Virus record (IMG/VR): IMGVR_UViG_3300037231_000129
Span: 1 to 64,000 of that record
Direction: 5' to 3' (one strand)
Length of the DNA: 64,000 nt
Source of the DNA: a virus
The notes beneath the pieces are model-generated. The model ran no database searches. It saw only the letters and a program-made list of their open reading frames with translations, and was not told where the DNA came from. Shown one piece after another: positions 1,916-61,506 of the stretch. The position numbers were made by a program, and so were the translations under genes. Every line of letters starts with the position of its first letter. The stretch's first letter is position 1.

Positions 1916-4900
1916 CAGAAGCCTCCTGCGGCGGGTTGCGCTGGAGCCGCCGGCGTGATCGAGGCGGCGTGGCGGGCACGCGTTGCAGGCGGGACGCCCA
2001 GCGTCGCGGCCGCCTGGTTGGCGACGTGCGGGCCGTAACCGGACAGCGCACGATACAGCGCGCTGATCCCCTCGTCGGCCAGATAGCCGGCGCCGGCGCC
2101 GATCGCGCCGCCAATCGCGGTACCGGCGACGTTGCCCGCCAGCGTGCCGCCACCAGGCTCCACGGCTGTCCCGGCAATGTCACCCGCGACACCGCCGACA
2201 TCCTCGCCGGCCGCCGCGCCGGCGCGTTGGAAGAAGCCCCCGGTCAGACGGGTCGCGGCACCGGCGATCTTGCTGCCGACCGCCTTGACGCTTTGACCAA
2301 CCGAAGATCCGGCGATCTTGCTGCCGAGGCCGGGCAAATTCGCGGTGTTCTGCGCATTGGCGATCGCCCCGCCAATCTTCTGGCCGACACCGGTCTGCGC
2401 GAAACGGTTGGCCGCGCCGGAAATCGCCTGTCCGGCACCGGTCTGGCCGAATTTATCGATCGCAGCCTGCGCCAGTTGCTTGCCCGGCTTGGTCGCCAAA
2501 CTTGTGGCTCCGGCACCCACGACGAGGCCGCCAAGCGACCCTGCGGTTGGGTGGTTGGGATTGAGGGCACCGGATTGGCCGACTTGGCCGCCGACAATGC
2601 CACCCACAGCAGGGGCCAGCGCGCGCAAACCCGTCGAGATCAGACCACCGCCTGGAATGAAATTGGAGGCGGCATTCGCCAGCTGAAATCCGGCTTCGCC
2701 ACCGGCATAGGAACCGCCAAGAGTGCCGCGGAATGCATTGTGCAATCGGCCGCGTTGCGGACCGGCCGCACCAGGTGCAGCGGTCGCAGCCGCGCCGGCG
2801 ATCGCCGGTGGTTTCGCGGGGGCCGTCTCGCCAGGAACATCGCCATTCGCCGCGGCCGCGCCGGCGATCGCCGGCGTCTTCGGCAATTGGATGGCATCCG
2901 ACGCGCCAGACCAGGACAGGAACTTGCGCAGGCCGTCCAGCGGCTCCTGCTTCATCACGTTCCTGTCGATCCAGCTGTTCAGCTTACGTGCGGCCACGTG
3001 ATGGATGTCCTCGTCGGATGCGAGAGGTGTCTGCTCGCGTGCCCGGCGGATCTCGCCACGGAACATCTTGTCGATGGTGTCGCGGAATTCCTCGTTGGTG
3101 CGCCATTCCTCGGGACGATGGCTTTCCGGGATTTCTTCAGTCAGCCGCTCTTGCAAATCACGCAAGTATTCGTCGGTGGTCTTCGCGGCTGCTGATGCTT
3201 TGCCGGTCGGCGGCGTGGCGGCGGTGGCATTCGTGTAGGCCTTGTCGACGGCCTCGGTGAGCTCTGACTGCATGATCGCCGGCAGACTGTAATGCTGCGC
3301 GATCAACCATATCGCCCGCTGTATCTGCTTATGTTCGTCGGCATTTGTGGGCGTATAGACGGCGATCTGCTTGCGCAGCTGGCCCAGCACGCGGCCTTTG
3401 TCGCTGGTTGCGGACTCACCGTAAACGTTGTCGGGATTGCCGAAGATGCCGCGTTTCGTGGCGTTTCCTACGAGCAGTTCGGCACGCTGGTTCTGATCGA
3501 GAACCTCCGTGCCGTGCGACTCGAACAGGTCCTTCAGGGAATTCCAGTAACTGACCGGCTTATTAGTCGTGGCGTGTTTGTATTTGGGACCGATGAATGC
3601 CAAGTGTTTTTTGAACAAGCCATCGACCATGTCCTGATCAGCTTTTCCAGGACTACCGCCGCGACGTTCGCGAAACTGCGCATTGGCAGGGCCGGTGCTG
3701 ACGATGTGGTTTTCACGCCGCAGCTTATCGACGGTCTCGTTGAGCGACTTTGGATCGGCGACCTCGATGGTGGATGCCTTCACCTGGTTCTGACTACCAC
3801 TGCCCTGCTGGTTGTCGCGGTTGCGCACCTCGTTCCGGATTTGCTCGACGTTTGATCCGAAGGGGATCTGCACCGCGGCAGACGCACCAGGTTCGTCCTT
3901 CTTCGGGAAGACATGGTGGCCATACATGAAGACCTGTTGGTTCTCAGCATTCCGGTAAGACAAGCCCATGAGCCGCTCACCACGTCGATTGAGGCCGCCA
4001 ACCGGTTCATTGATAACTCGGATATCCTTTGGCCTCTTCCATTTCTTGGTATTGATCTGGAACGGCCTGGTGGGTGAGCTGGCGTCGATCACGCCGATCG
4101 ACGTCGCGAGGCCCAGCGCGGTGCTCAGCTTACCCGAATTTTGGAGGGCAAACGCGCCGACTTTCTTCGCCTTGGCGGCTGCGCTGGCACCCACACGCTG
4201 GGCTGTCTCACCGGCCGTCTTCCAGTTCGTGTTGGCGTGCAGGAAATCGTAAATGTCCTTCAGCGTGCCTTTCAGCGAGCCGCGATGAGCAGCCACCAGG
4301 GCTTCGTAATCGACCGCCGCCTGTTGCATGCGCCCAGCGAGTTCCGGGACGTGGCGTTCGAAAGCAGTTCCGAGTAGCCCGTGCTTCGGAATCCCGGCTT
4401 CCAGTGCCGCCTGCTGGACCGCGATGAGCGTGTTGAGATGGTCGGCGGCGACCCGCGCATGGATGTTGGAGTCGTGGAGGAAATCCCGGCTGGCCTTGGT
4501 TTTAACCTCTGCCTCTTTGGCGTCGAAATTCGGCACCGGGGCAAAATATTCAGGCTTTTTGGAGAACGGATTGCGTATTGCCACTCGCTCGGCGTCCGTC
4601 AAATCTTTCGATTCGGAGCCACGGGCATACTGCAGTGCAGGCTCGCCAAGCTTCATCTCGTCCGCGATGAAGCCGAGCTCGGCATTCACTTTGACTTCCC
4701 AATCATTGTGAACGTTTTCCAGCTCTTCCAACGCCGCCTTGCGGGTTTTTGCGACAAGGTCGTGACCCATCCGGGTCTTCGCAAAGGTGCGGATCGAGGC
4801 CAGTGAGGTGTCATCATGGTCGAAATCGGATAGCCGGTCAGGGACCGCCGTCAGGTCACGCTGCAGTCCATTCCGTCTGGTTTCAAGCTCCTTGATGAGG

Positions 4901-6888: not shown

Positions 6889-9326
6889 GCGGCGACCTTC
6901 CGCGGTTCAAGGATCTCGCGGATATGCGTGATCAGGCCACGCGGCGCCATTTTCGCTACCGCAGGCGCAGCTTTGCCGTGTTTCTTGATCCAGTCATCCG
7001 CCTCGGCCGGATGCAGCACGTAGAGCGGGTTTGACGGGGCGCCGTCATGGCCGAAATGCTTCTCGCCAACGCCTTCGGGGTTGTGCAGCAGGCCTGCCGC
7101 GTGTGAGACCTCCATCATCAGGTTGGCGTGCTTCGGCAGGTGTGGCCGCACCTTGTCGTAGGCGCCCTGGGCGTCGCCAACGGCGTGCCAGGTGTTCCGC
7201 CGCTGCTGGTCGACCGCGGCGACCTTGTTCTTGCGGCCGAGCACGGCTTTGCCGGCATGGGTCCGCATGCTGTCGAACTGGTCGTCTAGGTCGTGATGAC
7301 CTTCCTTCAGCCACCGGGCTTTCGCCGCAGCGATACGCTGATCGTGTTCTTTCTCGGAAAGGTTGCTGTGTGCGACGGCTTGCTGACCAACGGCTGCCTG
7401 AGCACCAGTGACTGCCAATTTTTGCATGTAGTTCGGCTTGGCGAGTTCGCTGTCCGGCTTCTTTTTGCCAGACAAAGCACGCCCCGCTGCAAGCCCGGTG
7501 ACGGCACCGCCAACTCCGCCAGCAATACGGCCAGCCTGACGACCCTGAACCGCGCCTTGTACCGCATCATCCAAGCCCATGTCGCCAGCCTCGTAGGCTT
7601 TTTGGCCAAGATGAGCCATTGTGTCCAAACCGACCTTTCGACCGAGTTTAGCGCCCAAATAACCGCCGGCTGCCGCTCCCAACAGACCAAGCACTTTGTT
7701 CATGGGCTGCTGGCGTTTCGCCAATCGCTCATCCAACGCCTCGAGCACCGCGCTGTCGGCCGACTTCATGTAATTGGCCATCCTCAACCTCTCCGCATCC
7801 GGTTGCTTCATCGGATCTACCGTGTGCATCGGGCGCAGCTGCCCATCCGTGTCGAGATGCAGGCCCGCCGCGGTCAGCTCATCCTCGGTCATTTCGTCGG
7901 CGTGCTTGCCGGTCTGGCCCTGCGTCCGGCCGTCAGCGTCGCGGCCGCGTTTGGCCAGCTCCCAGAGGATCGCCTTGTCGGCGCTGTTCGCCAGCGGATC
8001 CGTCGAGCCGGGCCCGGTCCCGCCCATTGACCCAACCTGCGCCTGGCGCAGACCGCCGACGCTCATGTTCTGCGGCTTCGAGCTCGGGCCGTAGACGAAG
8101 CTTTTCGCGCCCATGATACTGCCGATCTCACCACCGTCGCCGCCGGCGCCGTATTCCGGTTTGCCGGTGTCTACGGTGGTGACGTCCTTGCGCAGGCGCT
8201 GCTCGAGGGCGACGAGAACAGGCTCGGTTTTACCAAGCCGGCCGGCCTGACTGAGGGCGATGGCGATAGCCTGTTTGCGATCGGTCACTATCGGCCCCCT
8301 TCGCGGTTTGCCCGAGCGCGGATTCGTCCCGCGCCAGGAGCGCAGCGTGCCAACCTTGTGCTCGTGCATCGTCTGAGCGATCGATGCGCGCTTGGCTTCT
8401 TCGGTGGCCGCAACCTCTGCATCGGCTTTTGCCAGATCGAAAACGATTGGTTTACCGGCCATTTTCTTGAATCCGGGCTCAGTGCTGCGGCTGGTGAACG
8501 TCTTGCCCCGGCTCGTGACCGTCGTCGCCGTACCGGGATCCACCTGGCGGCTCATCGGTTTGTTGCCCCTCACTGTCGTGTAAGCCCAACTCGGCAGGAC
8601 CTTCTTCGTCGGGTTCTGACCGCTGAATGTCTTGCCGCGGCTGACGTAGTTGCCCGCCAACGAGGCTTCGTGCTCGCTGGCCTCGGCCGGCAAATGCGGG
8701 AGCATCCCGACCACGCGCCGGACATCGATCTTGAGCAAATCCGCGAAGGTCGGCGGTGGCAGCATCTGCGCGAACGTGCGCGGCGTGCCCTTCAGCATCA
8801 CCTCCTCGACCGAACCATCCGATTTCTGCAATTCGAGGAATCGCGCGCCGTGCATGCAAGGGCTGTCGACCAGGCTGATTTCGCCGATCCGCGGCGTGTA
8901 GCGGGTGCAGCCTTTATGGATGGGATCAGCCCATTTCTTAGCGTAGCCGCCGCCGATCGACAGCCCGGTGTAGCCGCCCTCCTCGACCTTTAGCCAGTCG
9001 ATGGGGTCGAGGATTTTGAGGCAAACCCGAACCCTTTTCGCCTCATCGTCGAATTCCATCTTCTCGACTTTGCCGGCCAGGTGCTTCGGATTGTGCATGG
9101 CGCGCACGTTGCCGAGGCTCTTGCCGCTGGTCGCGTCGGAGAACTGTTTCGACCATGCCTTGAACATCGGCACGGCCGTGGCGTAGTCCATCACCTCACG
9201 CGATTTGTCCGGCTCCTCGAGCGCCGCCACTGCCCAAATCGTCTGGGTTGCCGCGTCAGCCTTGAACAGAATCGCCGCGTCCGGCTTGAACAACAGCGGG
9301 AACGGCGTTTCACCGCCGATCGCCAT
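6885..9326 (-). CDS. prohead maturation serine protease (HK97/XkdF-like N-terminal domain) with long C-terminal extension including a DUF6496-like segment
   Basis: Motifs GNVRAMH, YTGLSIGG and EISLVDSPC. TMHEHKVGTLRS...VTDRKQAIAIALSQA resembles DUF6496. Start placed at ATG 9326, next to the upstream stop. Confidence 0.8.
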   Translation of the reverse strand: MAIGGETPFPLLFKPDAAILFKADAATQTIWAVAALEEPDKSREVMDYATAVPMFKAWSKQFSDATSGKSLGNVRAMHNPKHLAGKVEKMEFDDEAKRVRVCLKILDPIDWLKVEEGGYTGLSIGGGYAKKWADPIHKGCTRYTPRIGEISLVDSPCMHGARFLELQKSDGSVEEVMLKGTPRTFAQMLPPPTFADLLKIDVRRVVGMLPHLPAEASEHEASLAGNYVSRGKTFSGQNPTKKVLPSWAYTTVRGNKPMSRQVDPGTATTVTSRGKTFTSRSTEPGFKKMAGKPIVFDLAKADAEVAATEEAKRASIAQTMHEHKVGTLRSWRGTNPRSGKPRRGPIVTDRKQAIAIALSQAGRLGKTEPVLVALEQRLRKDVTTVDTGKPEYGAGGDGGEIGSIMGAKSFVYGPSSKPQNMSVGGLRQAQVGSMGGTGPGSTDPLANSADKAILWELAKRGRDADGRTQGQTGKHADEMTEDELTAAGLHLDTDGQLRPMHTVDPMKQPDAERLRMANYMKSADSAVLEALDERLAKRQQPMNKVLGLLGAAAGGYLGAKLGRKVGLDTMAHLGQKAYEAGDMGLDDAVQGAVQGRQAGRIAGGVGGAVTGLAAGRALSGKKKPDSELAKPNYMQKLAVTGAQAAVGQQAVAHSNLSEKEHDQRIAAAKARWLKEGHHDLDDQFDSMRTHAGKAVLGRKNKVAAVDQQRRNTWHAVGDAQGAYDKVRPHLPKHANLMMEVSHAAGLLHNPEGVGEKHFGHDGAPSNPLYVLHPAEADDWIKKHGKAAPAVAKMAPRGLITHIREILEPRKVAA

Positions 9327-9327
9327 C

Positions 9328-10812
9328 TCAGGCCGCCGTCGCGAAGCGTTGCCGCAAGCGCACCCCACCAGCAGGTTCAGCTGCCGCCCGGGGCGGTTCC
9401 CAACCCATGATCGCCTTGGCCAGCGGCAACGGGATCTCCTCGGCCGTCGCCAGCGCCTCCGCGACCCACTTCTTCAGCTGGATGGTGTTGGCGTCTTCCT
9501 GCAACCATGCGGTGATCGCGCCGTCGAGTGCTACCTTCTGCAACTTGTCGCCGGCTTGCATCGACCAAGCCATCAGATCGGCGGCATGCTGCGCGCCCAC
9601 TCGCATCACCTCGACCCGTGATTCCGGCTCCAACGTGTTCAGCGCCTTGCACATCTCCAGCGGTGCGATCTTCACCAGCTCGACCGCCAGGTCGCCGCCC
9701 TTGTCCATCTTCTTCTTCGGGCGCTTCTTGCCGGTGGCCGGATCGACGCTGTCGGCGTCATTGGCCTCGGTCAGCGGTCCATCGCCCTCCGAGCCCGCCA
9801 CGCTGCCCAGGCCGCCCGTGGCGCCCTTGCGGCGGATCTTCAACGTCGGATTGATCTCGCCGCCGCCGCCATCATTGGGACCGCTGCCGGGGGTTGGGCT
9901 TGTGCCGTCCGTCTGATTCGGCATTGCCGTTGAACCGGGCATCCGCTTGCCCGCGCCTTCGCCGCTGCCCTGCCGGGTGTAACCCAAGCGTGAATCGTGC
10001 GTCGCGCCCAGCTTCGATCCCACGTGGCTGGCGGCGTTCCCGGCATTGCTGTGCGCCGGAACCTCATCCTGCTCCTCGGCCTTCCGCAACGCGCGCTGGC
10101 GTACCAAAATTTCCGCGACCGCCTTTTTCAGCTGCTTGTGGCTGCCGTCGCCACCGTTGATGAACTCGGCGATCGCGGCTTCCCGATCGGCATCGGAAGT
10201 CTTGTAGACGTCCATCTTGGCCAGTGCGTTGTCAAAATGCGCGGTGTAATTGCCCACATGCTGCGCCAGCCTGGCCTGCTCGCGTGGCGTCGGCAGAGCA
10301 TCGAACATCTTCTGCAGCTCGAATTCCGGGCCAACGTCAGGCGCAGCCTTGGCCAGCGCCGGGAACTCCTCACTGCCGGACTCGGAATTGACCAGCGCCT
10401 TCTTCAGCGGGCCGTCGCCGGCCTCGAACCACTCCTCGAGGACCTGCTTGGCCATGTCCTCGTCGGCGTCGCGGATCATCGGCATGTAGTGGCCGAGTTC
10501 AGTGCGATACGAGCCGATCTTGATCAGCATCGCCGCCTTTCTTTCCGGCGTCGGCTGCTCATCAACGAATTTCACCAGTGCCGCATCCAAGCTGGCGCGG
10601 GTTTCGTCGAGCGTTGGATTTTGCGTGCTCACGGAAGACTCCTGTTTACCGAAAAGGCTTTGAAAAAAGCTCGGGGCTTTGGTCTTTGGCGTTTTGGGCG
10701 GTGGCGTGTCGGCGGCGTTCGTCTCATTGGAGTTGATCGCGATTTTGCTGCCGATTTCGAGGGCATCGGGCGCGGCCATGCTGACGAAACGCCCCAGGGT
10801 GCTGCCGCTCAT
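9328..10812 (-). CDS. head-associated hypothetical protein rich in L-x-K motifs
   Basis: ATGA overlap with the MuF gene at 10809-10812; lies within the head operon. Confidence 0.7.
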   Translation of the reverse strand: MSGSTLGRFVSMAAPDALEIGSKIAINSNETNAADTPPPKTPKTKAPSFFQSLFGKQESSVSTQNPTLDETRASLDAALVKFVDEQPTPERKAAMLIKIGSYRTELGHYMPMIRDADEDMAKQVLEEWFEAGDGPLKKALVNSESGSEEFPALAKAAPDVGPEFELQKMFDALPTPREQARLAQHVGNYTAHFDNALAKMDVYKTSDADREAAIAEFINGGDGSHKQLKKAVAEILVRQRALRKAEEQDEVPAHSNAGNAASHVGSKLGATHDSRLGYTRQGSGEGAGKRMPGSTAMPNQTDGTSPTPGSGPNDGGGGEINPTLKIRRKGATGGLGSVAGSEGDGPLTEANDADSVDPATGKKRPKKKMDKGGDLAVELVKIAPLEMCKALNTLEPESRVEVMRVGAQHAADLMAWSMQAGDKLQKVALDGAITAWLQEDANTIQLKKWVAEALATAEEIPLPLAKAIMGWEPPRAAAEPAGGVRLRQRFATAA

Positions 10813-16166: not shown

Positions 16167-16327
16167 AGCTCCAGATTACGCTCGACGAGAACAAGGTCGG
16201 GATAACGATGATCTACCCAGATCGCTATGCCGCGATCGAAGAATACGATCGATTGGTTGAGATGTTGAGCCGCCAAAGCGGAGAAACTGTCACCCTCGAA
16301 ATAAAAGGAGCACGTCGTGTGGAATAA
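16163..16327 (+). CDS. small hypothetical protein
   Basis: ATGA-coupled. Confidence 0.5.
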   Translation: MKLQITLDENKVGITMIYPDRYAAIEEYDRLVEMLSRQSGETVTLEIKGARRVE

Positions 16328-17009
16328 ATCCGCCTACAACGCTTCGATCCGAGACATCGAGATGCCGGATCGGATCAAGAAACTGCCGGTTTCGCCGAAG
16401 GGATTCTCGGTGCCATGGTTCGTCGCGTTCATCGACGGCGTGCCGGATTTCCGGGTTGTCCGTGAGAACGGCATCGCGATTGCCCATAACCGCAAGCTCT
16501 GCTGGGTCTGCGGCGAGCCGATGGGTCGCATGAAGGCAATCTCGCTGGGCCCCATGTGCATCATCAACCGAGTGATCAGTGAGCCGCCGTCGCATCGCGA
16601 ATGCGCGGTCTATAGCTGCTTGGCCTGTCCGTTTCTATCGAACCCGCGCATGCAGCGGCACGCCGCCAATCTACCGGAGAACATCGGCGCCGCCGGCGTC
16701 GCGATCCTGCGCAACCCGGGCGTCATGGCGGTCTGGATCACGCGGCACTACGAGCCGTTCGGCACCGATGGCCAGGGCATCGGCCGCGCCGGCGTGCTGT
16801 TTACCTTCGACGATGCGGAGGAGATCCTGTGGTTCGCCGAGGGTCGCGCCGCGACGCGGGCCGAGATCATGGCCTCGATCGACAGCGGTTTTCCGCTGCT
16901 GGAGGAGGCTGCGGCGAAGCAGGACCAGCATTACAAGCAGGGCGACGCGGCGATGAAGCAACTGATGAAACAGCGCGAGGCCGCGCTCCGCCTCCTGCCG
17001 GAGGCATGA
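16317..17009 (+). CDS. conserved Cys/His-rich phage protein
   Basis: AAGGAG RBS; VPWFVA, LCWVCG, GPMC, EPPSHRECA and ACPFL motifs. Confidence 0.75.
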   Translation: MWNKSAYNASIRDIEMPDRIKKLPVSPKGFSVPWFVAFIDGVPDFRVVRENGIAIAHNRKLCWVCGEPMGRMKAISLGPMCIINRVISEPPSHRECAVYSCLACPFLSNPRMQRHAANLPENIGAAGVAILRNPGVMAVWITRHYEPFGTDGQGIGRAGVLFTFDDAEEILWFAEGRAATRAEIMASIDSGFPLLEEAAAKQDQHYKQGDAAMKQLMKQREAALRLLPEA

Positions 17010-45469: not shown

Positions 45470-45545
45470 TGGTGCCCAGGGATGGAATCGAACCACCGAC
45501 TCCCGCGTTTTCGGCGCGGAGCTCTACCAACTGAGCTACCCGGGC
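45470..45545 (-). tRNA. tRNA-Phe(GAA) with encoded CCA
   Basis: GCCCGGG TA GCTC..GAGC T CCGCG-CCGAAAA-CGCGG GAGTC GGTGG-TTCGATT-CCATC CCTGGGC ACCA; 76 nt. Confidence 0.9.
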
Positions 45546-47780: not shown

Positions 47781-47825
47781 GCGGCGTGCCTTCGGGCCTC
47801 CTAAGACCACGCCGCACCATGCGGC

Positions 47826-47884
47826 GTGCCTATCCAGCACCGCTGGACAGAGAGCCGAGACCTGTCCGTCTCGGCGAAAGGCAC
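47826..47884 (+). ncRNA. hammerhead-like element A2
   Basis: GTGCCT A TCCAGC/GCTGGA CAGAGA GCCGAGAC/GTCTCGGC GAA AGGCAC. Confidence 0.55.
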
Positions 47885-47892
47885 ACCCCAAT

Positions 47893-48565: not shown

Positions 48566-48571
48566 CGGGGC

Positions 48572-48625
48572 GCCTTTCCAGCACCGCTGGACAGAGAGCC
48601 GAGACCTGTCGTCTCGGCGAAAGGC
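48572..48625 (+). ncRNA. hammerhead-like element A4
   Basis: GCCT T TCCAGC/GCTGGA CAGAGA GCCGAGAC/GTCTCGGC GAA AGGC. Confidence 0.55.
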
Positions 48626-48632
48626 ACACCCA

Positions 48633-49770: not shown

Positions 49771-49778
49771 TCGGGCGG

Positions 49779-49833
49779 GCCTTCCCCGCACCGCGGGGCA
49801 GAGAGCCGAGACCTGCACGTCCCGGCGAAAGGC
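49779..49833 (+). ncRNA. hammerhead-like element A6
   Basis: GCCT T CCCCGC/GCGGGG CAGAGA GCCGAGAC/GTCCCGGC GAA AGGC. Confidence 0.55.
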
Positions 49834-49840
49834 ACACAAA

Positions 49841-50008: not shown

Positions 50009-50284
50009 ATGACCATAGACCCCAACCTCCTCCGACCTGGTCATCGTCTGCGGTTCACCCAATCGCTGGACGTCTTCACCCTGGACCACATCTTTCCCAA
50101 AGGTGCGGCGGGCACGATCGAAGACGCCGAACTCGACGCCCTCCCGGGTCTGCCAATCCTGTATCTGCGCATGGATGACGTCTTTCCCTGCTTGAGCAGC
50201 TTCAAGAATGTTCTGCAGATCTTCCGGTCTAATGACCTGGGTGCGGAGGTGACCGACGCTGAATTCGAACCATGCGGCTTCTAA
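50009..50284 (+). CDS. hypothetical protein (array gene)
   Basis: AAAGGGA RBS. Confidence 0.7.
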   Translation: MTIDPNLLRPGHRLRFTQSLDVFTLDHIFPKGAAGTIEDAELDALPGLPILYLRMDDVFPCLSSFKNVLQIFRSNDLGAEVTDAEFEPCGF

Positions 50285-50321
50285 GCCGCCTGGTGCCAGG
50301 ACACCCCTGGCTTGATAAGGA
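50264..50321 (+). ncRNA. hammerhead-like element B2
   Basis: TTC GAA CCA.GCGGC/GCCGC.TGG T GCCAGG/CCTGGC TTGATAA GGA. Confidence 0.6.
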
Positions 50322-50328
50322 CATCCAC

Positions 50329-50934
50329 ATGTTACTCACCGACGACCAGGCCACACGCATCAACGGCCTTCTCCGTGCCACGCGGCCGTTCGCCAAATTG
50401 CCGGCGACGAACCAGCGACCCATGAACACCACGTGGCAAGCACTGAACGACACGTTGATGTCGATGCGGCTCCCCCTCTATCACAGATCCCTGCGCAAGC
50501 CGGTTCCCACGGAGAAGGTCTACGAGGCCGCCGTGCAGAATGGGCTTGCACTCCTCGGCGCGTTCGCGGCGACGCTTGGCACCAAACAGGCCATCGTCAG
50601 CAGCCGCGGCCGCTGGATCGACCGCATCAGCTTTCAGCCCCGTCCCGACGGGATGAACTGGAATGCGGCGCATGCCATCTCCCCGGAGTATCTGGTCCAA
50701 AAACGGGCCAGTGATCCGAACCAAGCTGTCTCGTTGGAGGATTTCCTGTTCATGGCCGCCAAGACTACCTACGTGGTAGCCCGGCGGTCCGCAGGCGCGA
50801 TCCCCGACATTACCGCTACCTTCGCCTTCGACGTCGCCTCCGATGGTGCGCCGACGGTCGATGGGGTGGTGCGAGAACACGGCGCCCAGACGCATAACGC
50901 GAGCTTGCTGCCGCTTTCTCCTTTCCGCCTTTGA
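50329..50934 (+). CDS. hypothetical protein (array gene)
   Basis: TAAGGA RBS. Confidence 0.7.
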   Translation: MLLTDDQATRINGLLRATRPFAKLPATNQRPMNTTWQALNDTLMSMRLPLYHRSLRKPVPTEKVYEAAVQNGLALLGAFAATLGTKQAIVSSRGRWIDRISFQPRPDGMNWNAAHAISPEYLVQKRASDPNQAVSLEDFLFMAAKTTYVVARRSAGAIPDITATFAFDVASDGAPTVDGVVREHGAQTHNASLLPLSPFRL

Positions 50935-51018
50935 GAAAGGCGCGCCCTTCGGGGCCGCTTATCCATGCACATCATCATGGACTGAAGACTTGATTTCCCG
51001 CCTGATCATTACCATATC

Positions 51019-51802
51019 AGTTGGGTCATTAAAATCCGAATGATCTGGGCCCGGTTAGCGCCCTAGAGTGCGGCGCTTCTGCGCGGCTTGAGACGATCCT
51101 GGTGCGACGGTCGCACTTGCAATTTAGCAGGCGAGATGTTGAGGAAGACATCAATAGAGATTCCGCATCGTTGTGGTACTTGCAAGAACGCGGAAAAGGC
51201 CAATGCTCGACTGTAAGGCCAGTTGGGATTTGAGTACGGCAGCACTTGTAACCCTGCCCGAACACGGGGGCGCCACCCTCCAAGCCTAAACCTCTTCTAT
51301 TTCGTCCAATGAGTATCGACCAAAATGGCTCCGCTATAGTCCATCGGCATGCCGGTCATCCGGATTGATGCCAGTTAGAATGCGGTTCCGAGTGCCTGGG
51401 GTCTATGGCCCCCAGGCCGCCATGAGTAGTCGAGCCATCCGTAGTGGTAGAAGTTGGTTTGACTATGGAAATCAAACTGATGGAATTCACCGCGGAGATC
51501 CTATCCGGCAAGCCATTGGCGACCGCAAGGGCGCCGAGAATGCCGAGAGTTCATGCAGGCCCATGAGCAGGATAGGATCTGGTTTCCGTCGCATAACGCG
51601 GCGGGCTGAGAACTCGCCCGGGGCCTGGTCGCAATCCAGTAGCCAGAGCCCCCGGGCGGCAGAAACCAGATATCATTCCCATAGCATAGCGGTCCGAGTA
51701 GCTTAGTGCGCTCGACTGCTAAGGCCGGCAGCTTCTGCTGTGTTTCGAAAGGAACCCGCGTTGGGTGTGCGCGGCGGCCGGCATCTCACCCACCACCCAA
51801 CT
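51019..51802 (+). ncRNA. candidate large structured non-coding RNA (about 780 nt)
   Basis: No credible ORF; many nested helices; 5'/3' closing helix AGTTGGGT/ACCCAACT; followed by a terminator. Confidence 0.6.
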
Positions 51803-51804
51803 TC

Positions 51805-51839
51805 CCCCCTGACAGGACCCCCTGTCAGGGGGTTTTTTT
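51805..51839 (+). terminator. strong intrinsic terminator
   Basis: CCCCCTGACAGG-ACCC-CCTGTCAGGGGG followed by T7. Confidence 0.85.
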
Positions 51840-52262
51840 GTGCCTTTGACGCCAGCTCGCCAGTCCGTGCAACGCGGCGCGGAGTAATGGCTGCTGGGTG
51901 GCCGTGGGCGGGTTTTCCCACACCACGCAATTTACCAGCACATTCCAGGAATCCGGGCCGATCGCGTCGTAGGCATGCGCCAGCTGGTGCAACGCGGCTG
52001 CCTGCTCAGACGCGCGCGTTGCGTCTGCTTCAGTGAACGAGGAGCGGCTCAACCGCCCGCGGAGGTTGCCTGTCGTCGCCATTTCGCCAAACCAGGCGGC
52101 CGCGCCCAGCAGTTTGGCGACCTCGTCGCCCAGCTCGCCGGCGTGCGCCATCACCTCGAGCGGTGTGAGCATGCGGCCCGGAATGACGGTTTTCACGACC
52201 ATCCGGCCATCTTTGATCGTGACGTCGGCGAATGCCGCCTTGACACGATGTTGATACGCCAT
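51825..52262 (-). CDS. DUF6456-like putative transcriptional (late/antitermination) regulator
   Basis: GAGGGG RBS; C-terminal A..AIG....VL..CV.......LLRAAL..LA pattern. Confidence 0.45.
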   Translation of the reverse strand: MAYQHRVKAAFADVTIKDGRMVVKTVIPGRMLTPLEVMAHAGELGDEVAKLLGAAAWFGEMATTGNLRGRLSRSSFTEADATRASEQAAALHQLAHAYDAIGPDSWNVLVNCVVWENPPTATQQPLLRAALHGLASWRQRHKKTP

Positions 52263-59207: not shown

Positions 59208-59400
59208 ATTTGCTGTATTTTCAATACCTAAACGATTCCAGTCGCTTGATCGCCAGAGTCGGCATCACCATATCTATTGGGCAATAACCACACGCAAAAA
59301 TTTACCACCGGGACTCGGTTTTTTGTGCCGATCCATAGAACGGCCGGTCTGCATGCACGCATGCGAATCGTCTGTGTTCCCGTTTTGAACGTGGTTTTCA

Positions 59401-61192: not shown

Positions 61193-61253
61193 GAAAACCC
61201 CGTAGCGGATACCGCCGCGGGGTTTTGCTTGCATTCAGCAAGCATTGATAAGG
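61193..61253 (+). ncRNA. hammerhead-like element B3 (A15.1-U16.1, UUGAUAA core)
   Basis: GAA AACCCCG/CGGGGTT T TGCTTGC/GCAAGCA TTGATAA GG; stem II weak. Confidence 0.55.
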
Positions 61254-61263
61254 AACACACCCA

Positions 61264-61506
61264 ATGTCTGACGAACCCAAGATCCTTGACGGGATCGCTA
61301 TGCCCCCGATCCACCCCTCGATCACCATGGACTTGGTTCTCGAAGCCATGGATCGCTCACCAAGCGAGACAGACGCCCTCGGCTTCTGCCTGGCGTGTGG
61401 CGAGAGCGTGCGAGAGATCGCTACGAGCACCAGGCGCGAGACATGCGGCTTCTGCGGTTGCCCTGCCGTCTTCGGCGCCGAGGAAATCATGTTCATTCTC
61501 GCCTGA
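61264..61506 (+). CDS. zinc-finger phage protein
   Basis: GFCLACG...CGFCG...VFGAEE. Confidence 0.75.
   Translation: MSDEPKILDGIAMPPIHPSITMDLVLEAMDRSPSETDALGFCLACGESVREIATSTRRETCGFCGCPAVFGAEEIMFILA

Follow-up and report, generated by a model that had tools for sequence, protein, structure and literature searches.

A candidate large non-coding RNA of a peat phage with an arm derived from domain I of 23S ribosomal RNA

We analysed a 64-kb window of viral DNA, positions 1 to 64,000 of the 98-kb IMG/VR phage record IMGVR_UViG_3300037231_000129, which comes from a peat metagenome, and within it the stretch 51019-51839, which a first-pass annotation had proposed to be a large structured phage RNA. 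On balance, from sequence comparison and predicted folding, we favour the reading that this stretch is a stand-alone gene of about 0.8 kb for a multi-module non-coding RNA (ncRNA), that it belongs to a small undescribed family of phage RNAs, and that it carries an arm captured from 23S ribosomal RNA (rRNA) and maintained since. Two parts of this reading are firmer than the whole. The arm, hereafter the module, very probably descends from domain I of 23S rRNA, and the locus as such is quite likely to be a real structured ncRNA gene. By its sequence the module is a derivative of 23S and not an rRNA gene, having about 150 of about 2900 nt and an incomplete set of domains. We could not find any description of an ncRNA with a 23S domain I-derived arm in a phage. 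A counterpart of the locus, referred to below as L093, occupies positions 8673-9266 of the record of a distant phage, IMG/VR 3300027821_000007 (91.5 kb).

The arm derived from 23S rRNA

The module was first noticed because positions 51243-51289 resemble short contigs that are highly abundant in each of the four runs and that are 23S rRNA; the 23S origin of the 150-nt module had been overlooked in the first-pass annotation. With nhmmer, a profile of ten genuine 23S genes matched 51140-51290 at an E-value of 7.2e-15, and this was the sole match in the 98-kb phage. The E-value was 4e-5 against the Escherichia coli 23S alone and 1.2e-11 against the 23S gene of a metagenome contig (PPYE01482388.1, hereafter L086), in an alignment of 151 nt with 151 nt. 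Even the closest real 23S has only 78-79% identity to the module, which argues that the module is not a fresh capture. The large-subunit rRNA model of Rfam (RF02541) gave no match in the whole phage, whether at its gathering score or with E relaxed to 10, while control genomes were scored by it. Elsewhere in the window, or anywhere in L093, no 23S similarity was found even at E 200. A possible resemblance of the stretch around CAGUUAGAAU to the uL11-binding centre was given up on the same grounds.

For the structural comparison we used the Rfam consensus structure, taken via alignment of E. coli rrlH. Canonical pairs were kept in the module at 23 of the 26 testable consensus pairs. The retained elements are the UC/GA mini-helix (H12), H13 (UCCGC/GCGGA), the U234-A430 pair, the long-range helix H14 (AGGC 51197-200 with GCCU 51284-87), H21 (51238-42/51254-58) and H22 (51266-70/51277-81), and the minimum free energy (MFE) fold of the isolated module segment recovers the 23S helices. 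A short hairpin stands in place of the H16-H20 arm (Table 1). The 23S of L086 has a similarly short remnant of this arm (GACUG..CAGUCUGGAU), which hints at the lineage from which the module came. L086 is the 23S closest to the module. Of 401 Pseudomonadota genomes searched with it, 224 gave a match, none above 79% identity, and it probably belongs to another phylum.

In L086 the remnant (980-1020, an arm of about 35 nt) lies inside a genuine 23S gene (710-1767) of an rrn operon with the order 16S, tRNA, tRNA, 23S. A pattern for such a short gap, applied to metagenome and genome collections, matched eight genuine 23S genes. In the seven besides L086 the deletions are bounded differently, and assembly errors may account for them. 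A pattern for the 23S-like core, applied to viral contigs, matched two genuine 23S genes at contig ends. The start of one viral contig (IMGVR_UViG_3300011268_001124, positions 1-1240) matches the 23S model from 136 to 2925 with 785 bits; over half of this 23S is missing, through faulty assembly or because the copy is strongly reduced.

The module is joined to the rest of the locus in independent assemblies. A 16-kb contig of the probable source run contains it together with its flanks. A soil contig of 360 nt and depth 5.4, assembled in another study, spans 51026-51385 and thus the whole module, and differs at one position. Such contigs argue against an assembly artefact. Near-identical pieces of the RNA are also present in soil and permafrost runs of other studies.

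The RNA gene and its counterpart in a related phage

The plus strand of 51019-51839 folds to -344.2 kcal/mol (z -4.69, with 0 of 20 shuffles as good) and the minus strand to -329.4 kcal/mol (z -4.31), in agreement with the first-pass annotation, which had proposed a highly structured RNA with G-U wobbles that favour the plus strand. The excess stability sits in the 3' part (51380-51800, z -3.75). All helices named in that annotation were found in the sequence: 51496-51509/51567-80, 51577-92/51656-71, 51615-26/51647-58, the long-range helix 51416-35/51710-29, the terminal helix 51019-26/51795-802 and the 12-bp terminator stem with its seven T. The strands ATGCCGGTC and GGCCGGCAT can also pair (9 bp, including one U-G) and are unpaired with each other in the MFE fold. 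Positions 51524-27 form the GCAA tetraloop.

The idea that the whole 800 nt form a single uniform fold, with the terminal helix closing it, did not hold up. The helix has no counterpart in L093, and a G51023A variant in one permafrost metagenome contig breaks it. Its 5' strand begins 2 nt downstream of the -10 hexamer of the promoter-like element, and therefore the helix may be partly untranscribed. The original proposal of a large structured ncRNA is supported by the non-coding character of the locus, its promoter-like element and terminator, its folding beyond shuffles, and a counterpart in L093 that appears to share two three-way junctions in the same order.

The ncRNA probably begins near 51024 and ends in the T run of the terminator. 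The promoter-like element CTTGAT-N17-CCATAT has only two exact matches in the window, at 50989-51017 and 59245-59273 (0.54 expected when one mismatch is allowed), and resembles the sigma-70 consensus of Sinorhizobium meliloti, CTTGAC-N17-CTATAT (PMC2873474). Its second copy (+) is found just upstream of a plus-strand gene array starting at about 59.5 kb. A short motif follows the -10 hexamer by 29-30 nt in the window and in L093 alike (Table 1). The gap is closed, as previously noted, by a 12-bp terminator hairpin; the T run is on the plus strand only, and the minus strand of 51805-51839 is without one. Downstream of gene A, the plus-strand gene that precedes the locus, there is a weak hairpin without a T run (50935-50965, +, GCCC-UUCG-GGGC); the corresponding place in L093 is occupied by a complete terminator (8600-8631). 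In the peat phage, transcription of the gene array may therefore run on into the RNA.

Searches for known families were negative. For 50800-52000, Rfam gave no match at the gathering score and chance matches only when E was relaxed to 10; the Rfam check proposed earlier thus matched no family, GOLLD and ROOL included. The L093 locus had no Rfam match at E up to 1. At the locus, neither ARAGORN nor the Rfam models detected a tRNA, transfer-messenger RNA (tmRNA), RNase P RNA, 6S RNA or group I or II intron, in line with the first-pass annotation, in which it had not been recognised as RNase P RNA, tmRNA or 6S. In the window as a whole, tRNA (tRNA-Phe) was the only Rfam match at the gathering score, and ARAGORN reported that tRNA-Phe (45470-45545) with no further tRNA and no tmRNA. 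A blastn search of GenBank phages gave no match, and no similar RNA was seen at 80 loci of relatives of the primase-helicase (at most 36% identity). Three patterns built from motifs common to the window and L093 matched the L093 record itself, and otherwise gave chance or coding matches only.

L093 was reached through gene A, which has 15 relatives in metagenomes, one of them in the L093 phage (39% identity, found by an alignment-based scan of IMG/VR). The layout there is a gene A homolog with its terminator, the promoter-like element, about 590 nt, a strong terminator and a convergent homolog of gene B (9250-9702, minus strand, 36% identity, E 6e-22). The genomic position, strand, promoter type and terminator are the same in both phages. 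The plus strand of the L093 RNA folds to -293.7 kcal/mol (z -7.68), which is better by 18.6 kcal/mol than its minus strand (-275.1 kcal/mol, z -4.52).

Short collinear blocks with matching spacings (GGYCCSGTTAGYGCC, CAGYTAGAAT, CGACCGCAAGG and ACCACCYAAC) run through both loci. From the motif at 51372 to the GCAA hairpin motif there are 138 nt in the window and 144 nt in L093, and from the GCAA motif to the C/A-rich motif 261 and 263 nt, respectively. The L093 copy of the first of these motifs, CAGCTAGAAT, comes after the closing stem of the L093 5' domain, downstream of its 3' strand. When the hairpin at 51394-51417 was compared by eye with its L093 counterpart, the stems differed at several pairs on both sides and the loops were alike.

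Covariance models were then made from single L093 domains and run, with filters off, over both strands of the whole 64-kb window (128 kb). The model of L093 8906-8997 had its first-ranked match, full-length, at 51494-51582 (+) with 14.3 bits and E 0.52. In this GCAA junction 12 of 13 closing pairs are canonical and 7 of 13 are changed on both sides relative to L093, and the tip aCC-GCAA-GGr of hairpin 51516-37 is conserved. The model of L093 9094-9162 ranked 51579-51669 (+) fourth, with 12.8 bits and E 0.29; several of the intergenic hammerhead-like elements described below were among its other matches. Because the two matches are adjacent, on the correct strand and correctly ordered, and fall where they were expected in 128 kb, chance is unlikely (1e-5 by a rough estimate). 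The two RNAs appear to have a common 3' core and different 5' parts, and the 23S module is present in the peat phage only. The GCAA-junction model also matched a G+C-rich three-way junction with 28.3 bits and E 7e-5 at 16325-16405 (+) of the L093 record (3217-3297, minus strand, of the piece L095). It lies about 7 kb from the RNA locus of that phage and may be another structured element of it.

The second of the two junctions has the layout of a type III hammerhead. Stem III is CUGGU/ACCAG, with U-A at 16.1/15.1 and U51584 as position 17; it is followed by stem I (51585-92/51598-605), the core CUGAGAA, stem II (51614-23/51650-59) and GAAA. C51613 and C51660-A51661 are unpaired beside stem II. 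By sequence and fold the two phages share the stem order III-I-II, the GAA, A15.1-U16.1 and an H at position 17. The hammerhead core CUGANGA is matched in neither, with A instead of G8 in the window (CUGAGAA) and A instead of U4 in L093 (CAGACGA). The Rfam hammerhead models gave no match on the 121-nt and 88-nt stretches at E up to 10, and no hammerhead was found in the window at the gathering score. Because of the non-canonical core and this negative search we call the junction hammerhead-like and not a hammerhead.

Three-way junctions of type III layout with the core CAGAGA also occur between genes of the peat phage, at 47825-47885, 48571-48626, 49777-49835 and 61218-61280 (all +). They end in GAAAGGC and are built like the junction at 51579-51669, a likeness that the first-pass annotation had missed.

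Table 1 Features of the RNA locus and its surroundings. Positions and strand refer to the window. The last column gives the corresponding element in the related phage.
Feature	Position	Strand	Details	L093 counterpart
Candidate ncRNA	51019..51839	+	folding z, strand difference, no open reading frame, terminator, no Rfam match	8673-9266
Promoter-like element CTTGAT-N17-CCATAT	50989..51017	+		CTTGAA-N17-CCATAT, 8643-8671
Short motif GGCCCGGTTAGCGCC	51048..51062	+		GGTCCCGTTAGTGCC, 8703-17
23S domain I module	51140..51292	+	E. coli ~212-432; H12, H13, H14, H21, H22 and U234-A430 kept	
8-bp hairpin CUCGACUG/CAGUUGGG	51206..51227	+	two G-U pairs; replaces the ~100-nt H16-H20 arm of 23S	
Motif CAGTTAGAAT	51372..51381	+		CAGCTAGAAT, 8782-91
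Hairpin GCCUGGGG/CCCCAGGC	51394..51417	+	loop UCUAUGGC	CGCCCUGG/CCGGGGCG, loop CUUUUGGC, 8868-8891
GCAA three-way junction	51496..51580	+	11-bp closing stem, hairpin 51516-37, second hairpin 51549-68	
Hammerhead-like three-way junction	51579..51669	+	type III layout	9096-9160
C/A-rich motif ACCACCCAAC	51792..51801	+	precedes the terminator	ACCACCTAAC, 9210-19
Intrinsic terminator	51805..51839	+	12-bp stem (51805-32), 4-nt loop, seven T	9217-9266, equivalent place
Gene A	50272..50934	+	220-aa open reading frame, aligned protein 201 aa; function unknown; synteny marker	
Gene B	51825..52262	-	145 aa, convergent; weak likeness to DUF6456; synteny marker	9250-9702 (-)

The genes on both sides serve here as synteny markers. 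Gene A has no Pfam or PHROG family match, and a tblastn search against phages found no relative. Its predicted structure is confident (predicted local distance difference test 87.6, predicted template modelling score 0.86), with three long helices and a beta sheet, and has no clear relative in the PDB (Foldseek E at least 0.2; best VIA, Z 5.3). The Pfam match of gene B to DUF6456 is below threshold. Single-sequence searches of IMG/VR with the flanking proteins found no relative. A stretch of about 40 nt within gene B (52088-52174) matches many unrelated metagenome contigs at 80-88% identity with differing flanks, and is probably a common G+C-rich coding motif. The peat phage encodes a portal protein, whose relatives are distant (at most 38% identity, Brevundimonas phages), a primase-helicase and a lambda-O-like initiator.

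Alternative readings of the locus

The observations that weigh against a real RNA with a maintained 23S arm concern, on the one hand, the module and, on the other hand, the link between the two RNAs. Those of the first kind bear on the alternative that survives best, which has a lower but real probability, namely that the RNA is real and its 23S piece a mere passenger. Host rRNA would have contributed a fragment to a variable arm by illegitimate recombination, and the fragment would be tolerated there or serve as a stable spacer, with no part in imitating the ribosome. The L093 RNA does without the 23S piece, which makes the module unnecessary for the function of the family, and the arms of the two RNAs differ widely. 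The segment 51085-51345, comprising the module and its flanks, is of ordinary stability, no stabler than its shuffles (z +0.43). The H22 loop, GACCA in all ten real 23S genes, is CGCCA in the module, and the H13 loop has been rewritten; such altered loops make an exact copy of a ribosomal binding site less likely. The homology stops sharply at both ends, although the adjoining 23S stretches, absent here, are identical in the ten real genes. In the ribosome, uL4 and uL24 bind the H16-H20 arm, which the module has lost. In favour of a maintained arm, among columns invariant in the ten real genes, 0 of 26 are changed in the kept helices versus 5 of about 27 in interior unpaired positions, a contrast that is weak, suggestive rather than strong (p ~0.05). 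A mere passenger also fits poorly with kept helices that are all intact despite only 78-79% identity to any real 23S found, with the long H16-H20 arm being neatly swapped for an 8-bp hairpin and not ragged, and with the soil contig of another study spanning the module with a single mismatch.

Observations of the second kind bear on a less likely reading, which we consider improbable, in which there is no functional RNA and the locus consists of decayed genes and a captured rRNA fragment, or is a DNA element such as a replication origin. The similarity between the two loci is not significant alone. The two RNAs were not linked by nhmmer, and their global alignment has z 4.3 versus shuffles with the ends included and only z 1.5 for the core. 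A covariance model of the L093 5' domain matched nothing in the window, the region of motif 51048-51062 included, and homology of the two 5' domains is unsupported. The junction E-values of 0.52 and 0.29 are weak when taken alone, and the covariation rests on two diverged sequences. Moreover, the minus strands also beat shuffles in folding, and the replication genes are 3.5-7 kb away from the RNA locus. Nevertheless, both loci fold far beyond shuffles with the plus strand better by 15-19 kcal/mol, the promoter-like element and the one-way terminator are conserved at the two ends, and the two junction models cross-match in order. No iterons and no AT-rich stretch were found in the locus, and dead sequence of 0.6-0.9 kb would rarely be kept by phages across such divergence.

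An mRNA for one or more small proteins, with incidental structure, is also among the less likely readings and is the least probable: although one frame of the gap is stop-free for 138 codons (51290-51704), the sole open reading frame of note (TTG start, 51365-51706, 113 aa) has no Pfam match and no collinear plus-strand translated similarity to the syntenic L093 locus, it crosses the conserved junction helices, and the open frame of L093 is a different one elsewhere in its locus, so that the two loci share neither a reading frame nor any translated similarity. The earlier description of a 0.9-kb gap without a credible gene is thus accurate. It measures 890 nt (50935-51824), between the end of gene A at 50934 and the end of the convergent gene B at 51825, and has 8-16 stop codons in every frame.

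Proposed role and relation to known RNAs

Under the reading that we favour, of a family RNA with a maintained 23S arm, the apparently shared 3' core, made up of the two junctions (GCAA and hammerhead-like) and the C/A-rich tail, would carry the basic function of the family. The rRNA piece would have been captured from a cellular 23S and kept folded, imitating part of the large subunit away from the ribosome, where it could hold or mislead a host factor that normally recognises this part; candidates are ribosomal proteins, assembly factors and enzymes directed at rRNA. A literature search for the ribosomal protein that binds H12-H14 and H21-H22 gave general data on assembly only. The transcript may be cut after U51584, or organised, by the hammerhead-like junction. 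We favour a role in trans, in which the RNA would act as a folded scaffold or decoy during infection. That the 23S module itself works as a decoy is a tentative suggestion. More speculative still is the full scheme, in which H12-H14 and H21-H22 of the host 23S were grafted onto an existing large RNA, imitate that part of the nascent or mature 50S subunit, and during infection capture some ribosomal protein or assembly factor, or else a defence enzyme that acts on rRNA, with the hammerhead-like junction processing the RNA.

Large structured ncRNAs are rare and nearly all of them have proved important, which makes a new family in soil phages worth knowing. As a true descendant that kept its helices and lost rRNA-specific loops, the 23S arm would show that one RNA can take up a module from an unrelated RNA and put it to new use, and it offers a concrete and testable case of a phage RNA that may mimic part of the large ribosomal subunit. 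The finding also ties the large RNA to the hammerhead-like junctions that punctuate the gene arrays of the peat phage.

The closest known systems in general appearance are large structured RNAs of phages and bacteria, GOLLD and ROOL and also HEARO, OLE and raiA, with which the candidate RNA has in common a size class of 0.6-0.8 kb, many helices and junctions, GNRA tetraloops, the phage location, the non-coding character and the stand-alone gene. It matches none of the five in sequence or structure and has another set of modules. These families have hundreds of members, whereas the present family has two known, diverged members. With type III hammerheads (RF00008) the junctions of the two phages share the layout, the GAAA before stem III, the A-U at 15.1/16.1 and U17, and each differs from them at one essential core position. 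To bacterial 23S rRNA (RF02541) the module is homologous in sequence, with the same helices and the same long-range pairs; unlike 23S, it is embedded in a phage RNA with a promoter and terminator of its own. Leaders of ribosomal protein operons (L1, L10, L20 and S8) are likewise non-ribosomal RNAs that reproduce part of an rRNA fold. Those leaders act in cis on ribosomal protein genes, none of which is near the module, and they are convergent mimics, whereas the module is truly homologous to 23S and would be part of an RNA acting in trans.

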